Shown one piece after another: positions 6,404 through 17,653 of a stretch of DNA of 64,000 nucleotides (the stretch's first letter is position 1; every line of letters begins with the position of its first letter). Location: assembly GCA_964361825.1 (NCBI GenBank), contig CAYICB010000001.1, positions 30,644 through 94,643 on the forward strand, written 5' to 3'. A program made the translations under genes and the position numbers. This DNA comes from an uncultured Candidatus Saccharibacteria bacterium (lineage in GTDB: Bacteria; Patescibacteriota; Minisyncoccia; Phycocordibacterales; JACOZG01). The notes below the pieces were generated by a model that was not told the DNA's origin, did no database searches, and worked only from the letters and a program-made list of their open reading frames with translations.

Positions 6404-6976
6404 ATGATCGGTCTCATTAAGGGCAAGGTGGTGGAGAAAACTGAGCGGGCTTTGCTTGTCGATACCGGCGGGCTGGGCTATGAAGTAAATGTTCTACCGG
6501 CGACAAGAAATGGGGCGAAAATTGGCGAGACGGCACAATTCTTTACCTATTTGGCCGTGCGCGAGGATGCGCTGGAGCTCTATGGTTTCGCCGAGAAAAA
6601 GGAGTTGGAATTTTTTAAATTACTGATCTCGATCTCCGGCATTGGGCCGAAGGGCGCGATTGCGGTCTTGGCGATCGCACCCCCAGAAACGCTCGAGAAG
6701 GCTGTGCGCTCGGGCGATACCAATTACCTCACCCGCGTCTCGGGCATAGGGAAGAAGCGCGCGGAGAAAATTGTGCTGGAACTCAAAGACAAACTCGGCT
6801 CGCTCGAAACGGGCGATGCCGATCACAGCTTGCAAGGCGAAGCTGACACGCTCGAAGCCCTGCAATCGCTCGGTTACACCCTCCCCGAGGCCCGCGAAGC
6901 GCTCAAGAAAGTCTCCCCCGACCTCACCGACACCAGTGCCAAAGTGAAAGCGGCCCTGAAAGTACTCGGCAAATAA
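6404..6976 (+). CDS. ruvA: Holliday junction branch migration protein RuvA
   Basis: MIGLIKGKVV...GGLGYEVNV...ISGIGPKGAIAVL (HhH) and C-terminal domain III. Start at the internal ATG at 6404. Confidence 0.85.
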   Translation: MIGLIKGKVVEKTERALLVDTGGLGYEVNVLPATRNGAKIGETAQFFTYLAVREDALELYGFAEKKELEFFKLLISISGIGPKGAIAVLAIAPPETLEKAVRSGDTNYLTRVSGIGKKRAEKIVLELKDKLGSLETGDADHSLQGEADTLEALQSLGYTLPEAREALKKVSPDLTDTSAKVKAALKVLGK

Positions 6977-13008: not shown

Positions 13009-13803
13009 CTAGAGATCAAGGGTCACACCAACCGGCGCATGATCCGAACCCAGCACTTCACCCAAGATAAACGCTTTTTTCACCTTATTTTTCAGCTTCT
13101 CGCTGACCCAAAATTGATCTATCCGCCAGCCCACATTACGGTCGCGGGCATGCGTTTTCTGGTCCCACCAACTATATTCTACCTTCTCCGGATGGAGCAA
13201 ACGAAATGAATCGGTAAAGCCCGCCGCCACAAATTTGTCGAGCCAAGCGCGCTCTATCGGCATAAAGCCCGAGTTTTTCTCATTCTCCTTCGGTCGCGCC
13301 AAATCAATGGGGAAATGAGCGGTGTTTACATCACCGCCGAAAATAATATTCTTCCCTTTCTTAAGCAAAGATTTATTGTACTCGAGAAATTCATCATAAA
13401 ATTTGAGCTTATAGTTTAGCCGCTCCTCGCCCGAACCGCCATTGGGAAAATAAATGTTTTGGTAAATAAAGTCGCCAAAGTCGAGCTCGATCATCCGACC
13501 CTCGCGGGTGAGAATGCTGGAGTAGCCAGACCGCGGATTATCGCCAAAATCCTTGGTAAACTTCTTCGGTTTTTCTTTAGTATAAACCCCCACGCCGCTA
13601 TAACCCTTCTTCTCTTTCTCCAAGTCCCAATAAGCGATGTAACCATCGGGGTGCGTCAAAGCCGCGCTCAACTTGATTTCATCATCAATCTTCACCTCCT
13701 GCAAACCCACCGCATCAGCTTTACTCTCGGCCAACCACTTGGGAAAACCCTTCTTCTCCGCCGCCCGAATCCCATTCACATTCCACGAGATAAAAGTCTT
13801 CAT
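13009..13803 (-). CDS. xth: exodeoxyribonuclease III (AP endonuclease)
   Basis: MKTFISWNVNGIRAAEKKGF...LQEVK and the C-terminal SDHAP motif. Confidence 0.9.
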   Translation of the reverse strand: MKTFISWNVNGIRAAEKKGFPKWLAESKADAVGLQEVKIDDEIKLSAALTHPDGYIAYWDLEKEKKGYSGVGVYTKEKPKKFTKDFGDNPRSGYSSILTREGRMIELDFGDFIYQNIYFPNGGSGEERLNYKLKFYDEFLEYNKSLLKKGKNIIFGGDVNTAHFPIDLARPKENEKNSGFMPIERAWLDKFVAAGFTDSFRLLHPEKVEYSWWDQKTHARDRNVGWRIDQFWVSEKLKNKVKKAFILGEVLGSDHAPVGVTLDL

Positions 13804-13866
13804 TGGGCCGATTGTAGCATAAGATTTGATCTTGAGTTAAAAACAAAATCATGTTAGTTTGTAAAC

Positions 13867-14106
13867 ATGACCAAAGCTAAAGTCCTCAGTGAAAAAATTA
13901 ATTTAACTGCCCGAGTCTTCAAAGAAGGAAAAATGTATGTGTCTCACAACCCAGAACTAAATGTGGCGAGTTGTGGCAACACCGCCGAAGAAGCAACGCT
14001 TAATCTCCGTGATGCCGTGTCTGGTTTTCTTAAATCGGCTAATAAATTAGGAACTTTAGAAGAAATTCTTGAAGAAAAAGCCTTCACGCGAGTATTTGTT
14101 GTTTGA
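13867..14106 (+). CDS. HicB/UPF0150-family antitoxin-like small protein
   Basis: Motif YVSHNPELNVASCGNTAEEATLNLRDAV matches the UPF0150/HicB N-domain pattern (Y.A.vPdLpgc.tqG.T.EEAl.N..EA). Its 3' end overlaps the RT gene 3' end by 23 bp, convergently. Confidence 0.55.
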   Translation: MTKAKVLSEKINLTARVFKEGKMYVSHNPELNVASCGNTAEEATLNLRDAVSGFLKSANKLGTLEEILEEKAFTRVFVV

Positions 14107-15067
14107 GTTTAAAACTATTCCCCCACCCCAGCAAACCCAAATACGAATTAATCACCGCCGGTTCTGGTTTCTGGGTCAGTCTTTTCAACATTCTCTTCTT
14201 CGTCACTGTTCTTAACACCCGATGATCGGGAAAGTGAATCCAACCGAGAAAATCAACACCAGAGGCAAGAGTCTGAATGGAAATTTTCTTCGGGTGCATG
14301 GAGAGCTTGAGTTTATTCCTCAAGAAATCTTGCATGAGCGGCAAAATCTGTTCTAGATATGCACGATCAGGGGACACAACCACAAAGTCATCGGCATAAC
14401 GGACATAATATTTTATTTTAAGCTTGTGCTTCACGAACTGATCAAACTCGTTCATGTAAATATTTACAAACAGTTGCGAGGTGAGATTGCCGAGTGGAAG
14501 ACCCACACCGTTTCTGCCCGAATTGAAGCTACCGAGAACAACAGAGAGAAGCCAGATAATATCTTGATCCGGAATGTATTTGCTTATAATCACAAGCAAA
14601 GTGGTCTGATCAATGTTTGCAAAAAACTTCTTGATATCGCATTTTAGCGCCCAAGTAGCTCTTGTGTTATTTCGCGAGATGATGTCGGTAAATTGTTGGA
14701 AACGCTTAAGCGCCCGGTGCACCCCCTTGCCGATTTGGCAGGAATGAGAATCTGAAATAAATGTCTTAGTGAAAAACGGAGAAAGCATCCGGTGCAAAGC
14801 ATGGTGAAGCAACCTGTCGCGCACACTTGCCTTGTGAATATCGCGTGGTTTGGGATCGGAAATTTTAAATGCCTGATATTTTGAGTGTGAATATGCCTTA
14901 GCAACAAGCTCGTGATGAAGCGAGACTATGTTTGTCATCAAGTTTCGCTCGAACATCTGCACATCTTGGCGGGCTCGCTTGCCACGCACGAATTCTTTCC
15001 ACGCCTTGAGAAGATTCTCGAGCGAGATGATATCATCATGTGTATGTTGAAAAATAATTTTGGGCAT
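14084..15067 (-). CDS. DGR reverse transcriptase
   Basis: RT motifs present: CDIKKFFANIDQ (motif 3), GLPLGNLTSQLFVNIYMNEFD (motif 4, with the DGR-specific [ILV]GxxxSQ), YVRYADDFVVV (YxDD), and a C-terminal GLLGWGNSFKLKQ. 327 aa. Confidence 0.9.
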   Translation of the reverse strand: MPKIIFQHTHDDIISLENLLKAWKEFVRGKRARQDVQMFERNLMTNIVSLHHELVAKAYSHSKYQAFKISDPKPRDIHKASVRDRLLHHALHRMLSPFFTKTFISDSHSCQIGKGVHRALKRFQQFTDIISRNNTRATWALKCDIKKFFANIDQTTLLVIISKYIPDQDIIWLLSVVLGSFNSGRNGVGLPLGNLTSQLFVNIYMNEFDQFVKHKLKIKYYVRYADDFVVVSPDRAYLEQILPLMQDFLRNKLKLSMHPKKISIQTLASGVDFLGWIHFPDHRVLRTVTKKRMLKRLTQKPEPAVINSYLGLLGWGNSFKLKQQILA

Positions 15068-15074
15068 AAAGATG

Positions 15075-15105
15075 GTCAGTCAGTCAGTCAGTCAGTCAGT
15101 CAGTA
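15075..15105. repeat. tetranucleotide microsatellite (GTCA)x7.5
   Basis: gtcagtcagtcagtcagtcagtcagtcagt(a) lies 8-38 bp upstream of the RT ATG (15065-15067) and 16-46 bp upstream of the avd TTG start (15121). Confidence 0.95.
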
Positions 15106-15120
15106 AAGATTTTACCCGTT

Positions 15121-15474
15121 TTGAGTAAGGTCAAGAGTGGATATCTAACATGGTACAAATTTTATCAAGAGATCCCTAAAACACACCGATACTCACTCGG
15201 CCAGCGCACAGACAACCTGTTTGTCGAAGTGATTGAAGCAATTTCGGCGGCGAGTTTTCTCTCGAGAGAGGAAAAGCAACCATATGTGAGACTTGCAATA
15301 AAGAAACTCGATACTCTACGAGTACTTCTCATGATTCTCTGGGAGACAAGATCTTTTGACGACAAGAAATACATTGCCCTATCGGTCATTCTTGGTGAGG
15401 CCGGGAAAATGCTCGGTGGTTGGAATGGCCAGCTTACAAAACAAAACTCTCCTACAAAAGCAGGAGAGAAATGA
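15121..15474 (+). CDS. avd: Avd-like accessory variability determinant (four-helix-bundle protein)
   Basis: 117 aa. IPKTHRYSLGQRTDNLFVEVIEAI and the C-terminal LGEAGKMLGGWNGQ...KAGEK resemble Bordetella phage BPP-1 Avd (IPRKHGVAREMFLK ... IAEVGRILGSW...GQAGK). TTG start; the frame stays open upstream through the microsatellite to a GTG at 15079. Confidence 0.6.
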   Translation: MSKVKSGYLTWYKFYQEIPKTHRYSLGQRTDNLFVEVIEAISAASFLSREEKQPYVRLAIKKLDTLRVLLMILWETRSFDDKKYIALSVILGEAGKMLGGWNGQLTKQNSPTKAGEK

Positions 15475-15480
15475 AGAGAG

Positions 15481-15607
15481 TTGCGGGACAACAAACGCGA
15501 ACCCGCCGTTGTCGTTCCACTCGTCGTCTGGCCTGTCGTAGTTGGCGTTCAGCCAACCACCATCGTCGTTGCGGTTCGCGTTGAGCAAGTTCGGATCGCC
15601 GTCGGAA
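15481..15607 (-). repeat. DGR template repeat (TR)
   Basis: 127 bp, near-identical to 15980-16112. At every one of the 14 mismatches this copy has T on the + strand (A on the - strand). It encodes an Asn-rich reading (NANRNDDGGWLNANYDRPDDEWNDNGGFAFVV). Confidence 0.85.
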
Positions 15608-15934
15608 ACACACAGGAAACCATCAGTGTCACTGCCCCTCGAATACTCTTAGGGCTGTATCGAATCCGGCATCGTAATGCCTTAGTCTCCCGTGCCAAGT
15701 ATCTTCGTTTTTTAACAGTTACATGCATCACTCTATCTGAAGCCATGACCGCAGATAATCTCGATGCACGGATACTGGGTTCGGTAGCGGGAAGCCGTAA
15801 CCGCCCGCATATTCACCTACTACCATTTAAATTTTAGCATAATAAAACCCCATGCCAGATTGCATGAGGTTGGAGTTTGATACGCTGTGTCTCCCGAGCG
15901 TTTGGCAATTGCTTGCCGTAGGACTAAGGTCCAA

Positions 15935-15961
15935 GGAACCAAGCGCTAGGGCTTAGGTTCC
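15935..15961 (-). promoter_or_regulatory. GC-rich stem-loop immediately 3' of the VR (candidate DGR homing hairpin)
   Basis: GGAACCAAGC-GCTAGG-GCTTAGGTTCC, about 19 nt beyond the VR end on the - strand. Confidence 0.5.
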
Positions 15962-15973
15962 AAGGTATCAGTA

Positions 15974-16693
15974 CTACTTTTGCGGGACAGGGACAACAAA
16001 CGCGAACCCGCCGCTGCCGTTCCACTCGCCGTCCGGCCTGTCGTAGTGGGCGCCCAGCCAACCACCACCGTCGAGGCGGTACGCGTGGAGCAAGCGCGGA
16101 TCGCCGTCGGAATCCTTGATGGGTTCGTGCATCGTGACGATGTACCACAGACCCATCTGTTCCAACTGCTCGTCCGTGAATGTGTCGCGGATCAGGCAGG
16201 CGACCTCCCAATGAGGCTTGACCCAGCCCTTCTTGTCGGCGGCCGCACGAATCTTCTTCGTGATACGGTCACTGATCTTCTGGCCCGGGCGCACCACGAT
16301 GTTGTAGGTGACGCCATTGGTCGGCGCTTCGCTTGCGCGACGCAGCACTTGACGTGCATAGTCGCCGATTCTCCAACCGCGACGCTCGAGGTACTGTTCC
16401 CACTGTTCGCGGGTAAAGCCATTCGAGGTGAGCGTGAAGTGGATGTTGCCCTCATCATCGACGGTCCATGCGGTCGGTGTCGGCGCGGTCGTCGGAATGG
16501 CAGCTCCTTCGCTTTCGGGAACTTCACCGGGTTGTTCATCAACTATGCCCTGCAAAATGTCAACAACCTGTTCTGGGTCTCGTTTTCCATCAAGAACCAG
16601 TTTGCCAACATTTGCCTGAAGCTTCCATAGTCTCTCGTACACGTTGTTGCTCACAACCATCTCCTTTTTGAAGAACTTACACCCGCTACTCAC
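15974..16693 (-). CDS. DGR target (variable) protein with C-terminal C-type-lectin/FGE-like VR
   Basis: 239 aa. The C-terminal 44 codons (LLHAYRLDGGGWLGAHYDRPDGEWNGSGGFAFVVP) are the VR. There is no obvious signal peptide. The gene is markedly more GC-rich than the neighbouring RT and avd genes. Confidence 0.8.
   Translation of the reverse strand: MSSGCKFFKKEMVVSNNVYERLWKLQANVGKLVLDGKRDPEQVVDILQGIVDEQPGEVPESEGAAIPTTAPTPTAWTVDDEGNIHFTLTSNGFTREQWEQYLERRGWRIGDYARQVLRRASEAPTNGVTYNIVVRPGQKISDRITKKIRAAADKKGWVKPHWEVACLIRDTFTDEQLEQMGLWYIVTMHEPIKDSDGDPRLLHAYRLDGGGWLGAHYDRPDGEWNGSGGFAFVVPVPQK
15980..16112 (-). repeat. DGR variable repeat (VR)
   Basis: Matches the TR except for 14 substitutions, all at TR-adenine positions on the - strand. 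A 6-bp GGGACA duplication lies at the 3' (IMH) end. The VR ends 4 nt before the target stop codon. Confidence 0.85.
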
Positions 16694-16855
16694 AGGTGCT
16701 TCCGGAATCTGCCGGATCAGTTAGCAAGGAAATCTCGCTAAATCTGGCCCAAGGTTAGCATATGCCCTGACAAAAGTCAAGCAAAAGTGGGAAATATGGC
16801 TTAAAATAAGGTTATTTTAACCGTAACTTACCTTCTGGTTTCTTGAGGAAATTTC

Positions 16856-16886
16856 AGTTATCGACAAACTGTCGATAACTTGTCGA
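16856..16886. promoter_or_regulatory. palindromic operator-like site GTTATCGACA-AAC-TGTCGATAAC plus an extra TTGTCGAT half-site
   Basis: Perfect 10-bp inverted repeat, about 165 bp upstream of the DGR target start and about 45 bp upstream of a small + ORF (16924-17133). Confidence 0.4.
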
Positions 16887-17212
16887 TGGTTCAAATCACA
16901 ACTCCACTTCTTGCACAAATTTTATGAAATGGCATAATCGTTCTATGTCTAATTCAATAGAAAAGCCAGTCATCTTGGCTCGAAAGGAAATTGAGTCTGT
17001 TCTTCGGCGTTACCAACTCAATTGGGAGGAAGTCCTGCCCGATCAAGATAATTCGATTTGGAAAAAATTCAAACCGGAAGCTAAAAAAGTCCGTCAAGAA
17101 CTGCTCCGCAAATTTTATCCGTCGCTTCAATAAATGCCGCGGTGCTACCGGTAAAAATCGTAACGCCACAAAATTTTTTTCAACAATATTGGATTTGATA
17201 CTGGGTTTTACT

Positions 17213-17653
17213 TTATCTCACTTTTTCTTCCAAAAACCAGAGCGCAATAAAAACAAACAGGGAAAGCAAAGAAGTAATGAGGGCGAGAATATAGAGCTTG
17301 AAGCCACAAGCGAGGCCAATGCCAGCCGCCACCCAGAGTCCAGCCGCGGTGGTGAGACCGCTGATTTTTTTATCTTTAAAAACAATTAAACCGGCGCCGA
17401 GGAAGCCAATCCCCACCACCACTTGGCTAGCCACCCGTAGCGGGTCAAACTGGAAACCCGATAAACCAACCGACATATTAGAAACCAAGTCACTCACGGT
17501 CACAAAGAGCGCCGCCCCCAAACTTACCAAAGCATAAGTGCGGATGCCGGCTGTTTTGCCTGCCACACTTCGCTCCAAACCAAGTAAACCGCCAAAAAAA
17601 ATCGCGGCCACCAATCTAAGTACTAAGTCACTATAAAAGGCGAGCACTTCCAT
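17213..17653 (-). CDS. MgtC/SapB family membrane protein
   Basis: The N-terminal region LRLVAAIFFGGLLGLERSVAGKTAGIRTYALVSLGAALF is characteristic of MgtC. Confidence 0.75.
   Translation of the reverse strand: MEVLAFYSDLVLRLVAAIFFGGLLGLERSVAGKTAGIRTYALVSLGAALFVTVSDLVSNMSVGLSGFQFDPLRVASQVVVGIGFLGAGLIVFKDKKISGLTTAAGLWVAAGIGLACGFKLYILALITSLLSLFVFIALWFLEEKVR

Follow-up and report, generated by a model that had tools for sequence, protein, structure and literature searches.

The 64-kb stretch of contig CAYICB010000001.1 analyzed here (the window) contains, between 14084 and 16693, the parts of a diversity-generating retroelement (DGR): a gene for a reverse transcriptase (RT), a template repeat (TR), a target gene that ends in a variable repeat (VR), and a gene for the accessory variability determinant (Avd). 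The first-pass annotation of this DNA had proposed a complete DGR at this place, and each part that it named is present. The genes and repeats are as follows.

14084-15067, minus strand: DGR RT, 327 aa, with LGNLTSQ (motif 4) and YADD
15121-15474, plus strand: avd, 117 aa, TTG start, on the strand opposite to the RT, the TR and the target
15481-15607, minus strand: TR, 127 nt, rich in Asn (AAC) codons when read in the target frame
15974-16693, minus strand: target gene, an open reading frame (ORF) of 239 aa (GTG start) with a variable N-terminus, a conserved core and the VR at its C-terminus, without a Pfam domain
15980-16112, minus strand: VR, 133 nt, making up the final 44 codons of the target, with a private 6-nt tandem duplication (TGTCCC) before GCAA

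When TR (15607 to 15485) and VR (16112 to 15990) are aligned on the minus strand, the alignment runs without gaps over 123 nt and includes 14 mismatches, and at all 14 of these the TR copy (15485-15607) has an adenine (28 adenines in 123 nt; chance P = 4.2e-11). A 6-nt gap extends the homology through GCAA and gives repeat lengths of 127 and 133 nt, so that the annotated pair of repeats, with 14 differences that are all A in the 15481-15607 copy, stands after realignment. With respect to the target frame, 13/14 mismatches and 26 of the 28 adenines in the aligned segment fall at codon position 1 or 2, and in a frame-extended segment with 30 adenines, the counts at positions 1, 2, and 3 are 9, 19, and 2, respectively. 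Translated in this frame, the TR reads VSDGDPNLLNANRNDDGGWLNANYDRPDDEWNDNGGFAFVVPQL, in agreement with its earlier description as an Asn(AAC)-rich peptide, and the variable positions of the target family coincide with the Asn (AAC) codons of the TR. No second VR-like copy is found in the 64-kb window. Adenine-specific TR/VR pairs recur in 24 homologous loci, in which the share of mismatches at TR adenines is 76-100%; with the window counted, all mismatches (100%) are at adenines in 13/25 loci. A second assembly of the window target, P0241 (an ENA contig of 2178 nt), is identical to the window target, VR included, as far as GGF; an unrelated, GC-rich tail of 64 aa follows. This contig is probably an assembly chimera joined at the VR/TR repeat, and we rejected it as a population variant of the VR because the same VR is joined to an unrelated tail.

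The RT ORF contains both of the motifs noted in the first-pass annotation, LGNLTSQ and YADD, and matches Pfam RVT_1 at 4.9e-22. Its best match in the PDB is 8ub7_A (1.4e-43, 152 bits), a 328-aa chain named "Reverse transcriptase" that is represented by nine entries and carries IGSLTSQLF, whereas group II intron RT structures match at only ~70 bits (~1e-18). In our reading, 8ub7_A is the bRT of the Bordetella phage studied by Handa et al. The best matches among phage proteins have 34-39% identity over 97% of the protein and include those of Vibrio phage VP585 and ANMV-1 virus, both presumably DGR-bearing; five Bordetella phage records also match. Judged by sequence, the window RT sides with the DGR RTs. 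The avd product, which had been called as an Avd and which lies on the plus strand opposite the RT, matches the NCBIfam model NF033474 (DivGenRetAVD; 1.1e-15, 57.9 bits, cut-off 80) and the Pfam model PF22296 (bAvd; 8e-10, 39.6 bits, cut-off 40). A search with Avd alone against the PDB found nothing.

The order in the window is target/VR, TR, reversed avd, RT. The same arrangement, with a spacer of ~330-420 nt between target/VR and TR, is found at ~24 of the 51 genome loci that encode a target relative, and avd is opposite in strand in all 93/93 loci holding both avd and RT. This corresponds to architecture B3, TR-(avd)-RT with avd reversed, which makes up 90% of a set of DGRs belonging to candidate phyla radiation (CPR) bacteria (Wu et al. 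2018, NAR, PMC5758913). One scan turned up 589 relatives of the RT. Those RT and target homologues that carry names belong to Parcubacteria, Paceibacterota, Nomurabacteria, Vogelbacteria, and similar groups. The neighboring genes are of the housekeeping type (exonuclease III family, DNA pol III delta-like, MgtC, cytidylate-kinase-like, and PD-(D/E)XK nuclease), and a tRNA-Lys gene lies ~2.6 kb past the end of the RT. Taken together, the element is almost certainly a complete chromosomal DGR of a Patescibacteria (CPR, Parcubacteria-type) genome in the B3 layout. This layout is already known as typical of CPR, and in this respect the window DGR is an ordinary B3-type element.

Beyond these genes and repeats, we observe a second set of features around the TR, downstream of the VR, and at the avd/RT junction.

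15075-15104, no strand assigned: (GTCA)7.5 microsatellite, reading (CTGA)n on the RT strand (TRF period 4, 7.5 copies, 100% match), which takes up most of the 53 nt that separate the starts of the divergent avd and RT
15437-15468, minus strand: 9-bp stem-loop with UUUU as its tetraloop (15468-15447), then UUUUGUUUUG (15446-15437), antisense over the last avd codons; a terminator-like scan match
15469-15480, minus strand: linker CUCUCUUCAUUU, just 3' of the TR
15608-15824, minus strand: structured RNA leader, ~217 nt, abutting the 5' end of the TR
15621-15610, minus strand: 3' strand of leader helix P4, ending 2 nt before the TR
15655-15634, minus strand: leader P6
15681-15668, minus strand: leader P5, with a UACG loop
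15695-15684, minus strand: 5' strand of leader P4
15713-15695, minus strand: A-rich leader strand and GAAGAUACUUGG
~15770-15722, minus strand: leader P3
15808-15787, minus strand: leader P2
15831-15839, minus strand: extended -10-like box TGCTAAAAT from a promoter scan, located 6 nt upstream of where the leader starts and a candidate promoter for the TR RNA
15846-15871, minus strand: terminator-like hairpin and T-run past the target gene, from a terminator scan, with hairpins at the equivalent place in relatives
15935-15961, minus strand: imperfect inverted repeat ~20 nt downstream of the VR, a candidate cruciform or hairpin aiding retrohoming

The leader is supported by extensive covariation. 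From 21 loci, RNAalifold predicts 54 leader pairs, of which 37 show compensatory double changes; 97.5% of the leader cells are paired on the named structure, compared to 36-48% when the partners are slid, and the observed measures are never reached by shuffles. A second set of 37 metagenome loci, which were fetched via the RT and selected with a sequence profile of the first set, yields the same fold (57 pairs, 46 compensatory) despite differing first bases of the TR. A sequence profile of the leader matches 87/131 related loci and, in an nhmmer search, the window once; the leader is always on the strand of the TR and lies right against it, with the 5' ends of the TRs differing. In order, the leader of these CPR loci has an A-rich strand that ends in GAAGA, then UACUUGG and the first (5') strand of the 12-bp P4. 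Next come two stem-loops, a short one (its loop is UACG in the window) and a longer one, separated by ~12 single-stranded nt, and last the other (3') strand of P4, which ends 2 nt before the TR. In most of 22 loci, a TAnnnT box, in many cases with TGn before it, is found equally far from the leader. Over 13500-17500, a search of Rfam at E ≤ 1 returns only a chance match to LPR10, with no RT-motif family (RT-10 included) and no group II or retron RNA. We conclude that the leader is very probably part of the DGR RNA. Lineage-specific insertions are seen in two loci, namely ~50 nt in the P2 hairpin of L001 (~2060-2140) and an extra GC-rich hairpin before the A-rich strand of L039 (~6740-6760). 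Such insertions show where the leader can take up extra sequence.

On the other side of the TR, the segment 15480-15437 consists of CUCUCUUCAUUU, the 9-bp tetraloop stem, and UUUUGUUUU. Six of seven pairs in this stem are compensatory, and 90.5% of the cells are paired versus 36-65% with partners slid. The stem-loop overlaps the end of avd on the opposite strand. The linker is kept even in loci where avd stops earlier and it is not avd coding. Conservation of synonymous codons in avd is 0.5-0.65 along the gene and rises to 0.81-0.93 only in the segment antisense to the linker and stem-loop (the last ~10 codons). By analogy, the stem-loop is a candidate Avd-binding element and/or terminator of the TR RNA. 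We also derived by eye, from the consensus, a candidate duplex between the leader strand AAA(C/U)GAAGA (15710-15702) and the linker sequence UCUUCAUUU (15477-15469). Across 45 loci, 92.3% of its cells are paired, compared to 45-57% with partners slid, and there are 14 double-change cells as opposed to 0-2.

Several other pairings and positions were considered and set aside. An RNA antisense to avd, resembling the spacer (Sp) of the Bordetella phage BPP-1 DGR, was rejected because synonymous constraint rises only in the last ~10 codons of avd, with none extra beyond ~45 nt from the TR. The 3' strand of the stem-loop past the TR was also considered as a partner for the TR-proximal CUCUCU; this pairing was rejected, as loci with changed stems (L012 and L003) do not compensate. 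Pairings of the leader 5' end with the U-tract and of the leader GAGAG with the linker are unsupported, with too few informative changes or a clash with covarying helices. Since the covarying leader is found 5' of the TR and avd shows no extra constraint further downstream, the RNA scaffold of this DGR seems to lie 5' of the TR.

The 3' end of the VR is where the window departs from its relatives. In the window, the VR ends in GTCCC-TGTCCC-GCAA and the TR in GTCCC-GCAA. In relatives, TR and VR are the same up to ...GTCCCGCAA and diverge immediately beyond it, with no indel; past GCAA, their TR goes on as CTCTCTTCATTT and their VR as GTTAGT... The in-frame TGTCCC tandem duplication is private to the window VR and gives the target the C-terminus VPVPQK rather than VPQVGSQT. 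The first-pass annotation had read a 6-bp GGGACA indel as what distinguishes the 3' ends, in the manner of an initiation of mutagenic homing (IMH) site. The indel is real, but it does not represent the IMH/IMH* difference of the family, as relatives lack it and diverge only past GCAA. Downstream of the VR, the inverted repeat (15961-15935) folds as DNA with -13.1 kcal/mol (z -2.5), and a hairpin of differing sequence is present at the equivalent post-VR place in 8/8 loci folded singly; RNAalifold on a MAFFT alignment gave no consensus structure downstream of the VR. The inverted repeat of the window and its relatives resembles the hairpin that assists homing in Bordetella phage (PMC3240598). 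Over the ~70 nt past the VR (15900-15980 of the window, minus strand, and the same regions of L002-L041), we additionally observe YTNRG-like words (CTTAG, CTAAG, CTCAG, CTTTG) every ~10-11 nt, which could represent a protein-binding array or bent DNA at the homing site.

The VR forms the last 44 codons of the ORF at 15974-16693, where both ORF and frame agree with the earlier description. The database gene call for the target begins at the ATG at 16660, which gives 228 aa, and this is the probable true start. Sequence or profile searches of the target against the PDB returned chance-level matches only; named DGR variable proteins with a C-type-lectin fold for comparison are Mtd (1yu0) and Treponema TvpA (2y3c), to which FGE-like domains may be added. 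The GC content of the target gene and TR is 0.58-0.61, compared to 0.43 for RT and avd and 0.46 for the window. Across loci, the target core is also better kept than the RT and Avd that accompany it: its aa identity reaches up to 86-88%, and in L003, for example, the values are 86% for the target, 59% for the RT, and 62% for Avd. This contrast in GC content and identity suggests that the target/TR module is strongly constrained or is exchanged between cassettes. Roughly half of the genome loci with a target relative have no avd or RT inside the fetched flank (L004, L009, L016, L017, L022, L027, L032-L034, L040, L043, L048, and L049); the flank is 6 kb long in several of these loci, and two of them are from one Yonathbacteria genome. 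Such loci may be remote targets that are served in trans or orphaned paralogues. At the other end of the cassette, a 79-aa ORF on the plus strand (13867-14106) converges on the 3' end of the RT with a 23-nt overlap; it appears HicB-antitoxin-like by eye and has no Pfam or NCBIfam match.

The second family-wide feature is the simple repeat between avd and RT. In the window, (GTCA)7.5 is the sole sizeable microsatellite, and among related loci, a simple repeat is found at or beside the avd/RT junction in 83/93. Most of these are poly-G (71/93 loci; 7-15 G, mode 10), while the remaining repeat loci have (CTGG)n, (GT)n, (GA)n, CTGA, or one of three different heptamers. Poly-G/C tracts of at least 8 occur once per locus in 75 loci, across 820 kb, with 69 of them being the ones counted at the avd/RT junction. 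Lengths differ between similar loci: L002 and L005 have a common left flank (GACTGGTAGAATCTTT) with 3 versus 11 heptamer copies, L052 and L053 have both flanks in common with 11 versus 9 CTGG units, and in the sole two pairs of loci whose 250-nt flanks are at least 99.6% identical, the G-run is the only difference. As its position is kept, its unit varies, and its length differs between near-identical loci, the junction repeat looks like a contingency locus. On these sequence comparisons, we consider the chances evenly balanced that it exerts stochastic (phase-variable) control over the expression of RT and/or Avd.

The position of the repeat relative to promoter elements and start codons seems to vary between sub-clades. 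The RT start codon is kept downstream of the repeat, and an in-frame upstream avd start is present in only 35/83 loci, mostly far off. A TAnnnT box lies at most 1 nt from the poly-G in 25/69 loci, and the distance from box to start codon is exactly 7 nt in 12 loci; a model in which poly-G always fills the -35/-10 spacer of a leaderless RT promoter was set aside, as it fits this subset only (25/69 loci). In the window, a plus-strand ATG at 15072, only 4 nt away from the start codon of the oppositely oriented RT, begins a frame that runs through the GTCA repeat, is +1 to avd and ends at TAA; were the repeat one unit shorter, this frame would be fused to avd as M-VSQS...-VKILPVLSKVK. Read in the direction of the RT, (CTGA)n has TGA stops in each of the three frames. 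L020 resembles the window in having an out-of-frame ATG shortly before the junction repeat. The repeat could lie in a promoter spacer, in the 5' untranslated regions of both genes, or within an N-terminal extension of avd; in the last case, it would give translational phase variation.

From these elements, a working model can be proposed. An RNA of ~385 nt would be made from its own promoter (-10 at 15839-15831) and consist of the 217-nt leader, the TR, the 12-nt linker, the 9-bp stem-loop, and the U-tract, at which it probably ends. By analogy with Bordetella phage, RT and pentameric Avd would bind this RNA, with Avd at the stem-loop 3' of the TR and RT at the leader elements. The cDNA would be primed in cis near the 3' end of the TR, possibly by the leader strand ...GAAGA paired to UCUUC(AUUU) past the TR, and its synthesis would misincorporate opposite adenines and halt at the 12-bp P4 duplex 2 nt before the TR. 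The cDNA would then replace the VR of the target, possibly aided by the inverted repeat downstream of the VR, and thereby alter up to ~14 residues of a putative C-type-lectin-like binding surface. RT and avd would be transcribed divergently from the 53-nt junction, which is nearly all (CTGA)n, and the repeat may tune or switch their expression.

The reading of this locus as a DGR, and of the window copy as a working one, has to be set against several others. It is exceedingly improbable that the RT is of the group II intron or retron kind and that the 127/133-nt repeat is an ordinary partial gene duplication. Group II intron RT/maturases are the nearest non-DGR relatives of the RT: its top NCBIfam match is the group II intron RT/maturase model TIGR04416, and source annotations of its relatives read "group II intron" or "retron-type" RT. 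However, the TIGR04416 match reaches 133 bits against a cut-off of 300 and the retron RT model 51.6 bits against 235, neither a group II intron nor a retron RNA family is found in 13500-17500, the match to the presumed bRT structure is much stronger than those to group II RTs, and the adenine-only mismatches (P = 4.2e-11) recur in 24 loci. A different possibility is a DGR by descent that is switched off or decaying, in which the VR was diversified in the past and no longer homes. Several observations weigh against a fully working element: the private 6-nt duplication lies in the IMH-equivalent region, beside the boundary of TR/VR homology, and is followed by a 3' flank unlike that of relatives, both of which could impair homing; the VR of the independent assembly P0241 is identical to that of the window; the leader/linker duplex contains a C.A mismatch in the window; and the ATG at 15072, ahead of the repeat, is not in frame with avd. 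Points against the overall reading and its mechanism are that both Avd scores fall just short of their curated cut-offs, that the leader/linker duplex, in the window and five relatives, has only 4-5 bp and is rivaled by a local hairpin, and that the promoter, RNA ends, priming site, and protein-RNA contacts are all inferred. Against decay, RT, avd, and target are intact ORFs with their catalytic and family motifs, the TR retains 28 adenines with 26 at codon positions 1 or 2, every leader helix is intact in the window, and all 14/14 TR/VR differences are of the adenine type with no other drift. We therefore consider decay unlikely, and the window DGR may or may not be active at present.

The two family-wide features have rivals of their own. 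Rather than belonging to the DGR RNA, the leader might be a regulatory 5' untranslated region (UTR), a riboswitch-like element, or a separate small RNA, with the Sp equivalent located elsewhere, for example, antisense to avd. The absence of an Rfam family match, RT-10 included, would fit such an element, as would the short proposed primer duplex with its competing local hairpin. We regard it as quite unlikely, since the leader is present in 87/131 loci, always on the TR strand and abutting the TR despite varied TR 5' ends, its covarying P4 duplex stops 2 nt short of the TR, its element order parallels that of the Bordetella phage Sp, and avd lacks extra synonymous constraint where an Sp-like RNA would sit. 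For the junction repeat, the balance is closer. That it has no switching role, and is a fixed promoter spacer, a G-run resembling a ribosome-binding site, or UTR filler whose lengths are neutral or reflect homopolymer assembly errors, is a serious possibility that we place somewhat short of even. There are just two near-identical locus pairs, each differing by a single G-run change, and neither the TAnnnT box beside the poly-G (25/69 loci only) nor the in-frame upstream avd starts are consistent. On the other hand, the repeat stays at one position while its unit changes among G(n), CTGA, CTGG, GT, GA, and three heptamers, poly-G/C of at least 8 occurs once per locus (75 loci, 820 kb), and copy numbers differ between L002 and L005 and between L052 and L053. 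With the leader as part of the DGR RNA and the repeat as a stochastic control of RT/Avd, the joint reading, in which all but the Avd-binding stem-loop of a permuted RNA resides in the 5' leader, the RNA ends at that stem-loop, and the repeat gates expression, is doubtful as a whole.

As a locus, the window DGR is one more among the thousands catalogued in CPR genomes, with a standard layout. The leader and the junction repeat are family-wide features that appear to be undescribed: in the literature examined, with Paul et al. 2017 outside its coverage, we found no earlier description of either and no paper linking DGRs with such repeats. CPR DGRs represent a large share of natural DGRs, and a single phage is the source of the sole mechanistic model. 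An RNA scaffold backed by covariation and placed across the TR from the phage one, if true, would show which parts of the ribonucleoprotein (RNP) are essential and which can be rearranged, and the defined RNA of ~385 nt is offered for the reconstitution of such a DGR. A hypermutable repeat conserved at the avd/RT junction, if true, would bear on how DGR activity is regulated, and if both readings hold, the hypermutator would itself be phase-variable. We know of no earlier hint that cells gate DGR mutagenesis stochastically.

Phase variation by promoter repeats is known from surface antigens, such as poly-G in the -35/-10 spacer of Neisseria meningitidis porA and opc and (TA)n between the divergent hifA and hifB promoters of Haemophilus influenzae. 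The avd/RT junction resembles these systems in having a hypermutable repeat in a very short divergent intergenic gap, with lengths that vary between near-identical loci. It differs in that the genes possibly controlled encode a mutagenesis machine rather than a surface antigen.

Among DGRs, the closest counterparts are those of CPR genomes, which include a CPR-restricted, cellular clade (DGR clade 2) whose targets have no recognizable domains (Roux et al. 2021, PMC8144416). The window shares with them the B3 order, a Patescibacteria host, a cellular context, a C-terminal VR, and an AAC-rich TR, and its target, like theirs, is a small protein without recognizable domains or transmembrane segments. 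We see no essential difference from the CPR B3 DGRs described in these studies (PMC5758913, PMC8144416), of which the window element is a member.

In the Bordetella phage BPP-1 RNP, the elements 3' of the TR are, in order, an Avd-binding stem-loop, a primer strand with the priming nucleotide A56, a strand that halts the RT by pairing with sequence just 5' of the TR, a short UNCG stem-loop and adenosines behind it, the single-stranded "thumb ring," and a long stem-loop to which the RT binds (Handa et al., bioRxiv 10.1101/2023.10.23.563531). Directly past the TR, the stem-loop bound by Avd commonly has 9 bp and a tetraloop, and the survey of other DGRs in the same study covered only 40 nt upstream and 100 nt downstream of the TR (bioRxiv 10.1101/2023.10.23.563531). 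The window has a homologous RT (1.4e-43), the (I/L)GxLTSQ motif, an Avd, and adenine-only TR/VR differences in common with BPP-1. Its stem-loop just 3' of the TR, which begins 12 nt past the TR, is comparable to the Avd-binding stem-loop; its P4 duplex abuts the 5' end of the TR as does the cPRT Stop; and as in Sp, one duplex strand is followed in the same order by a short UNCG-type stem-loop, a single strand, and a longer stem-loop. Unlike BPP-1 (mtd-avd-TR-Sp-brt), the window has an inverted avd between TR and RT, and its element is cellular rather than from a phage, with a target of 228-239 aa instead of a tail fiber. No similarity to the BPP-1 RNA is detected in sequence or through Rfam (RT-10). 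The window has no 140-nt spacer 3' of the TR and instead has its conserved RNA 5' of the TR, such that both strands of the TR-adjacent duplex come from upstream. The roles of Avd binding and RT stop are assigned to these RNA elements by analogy with the work of Handa et al. On the same analogy, we put forward, with slightly less than even confidence, that the RNA scaffold of these CPR DGRs may be a circular permutation of the phage scaffold.

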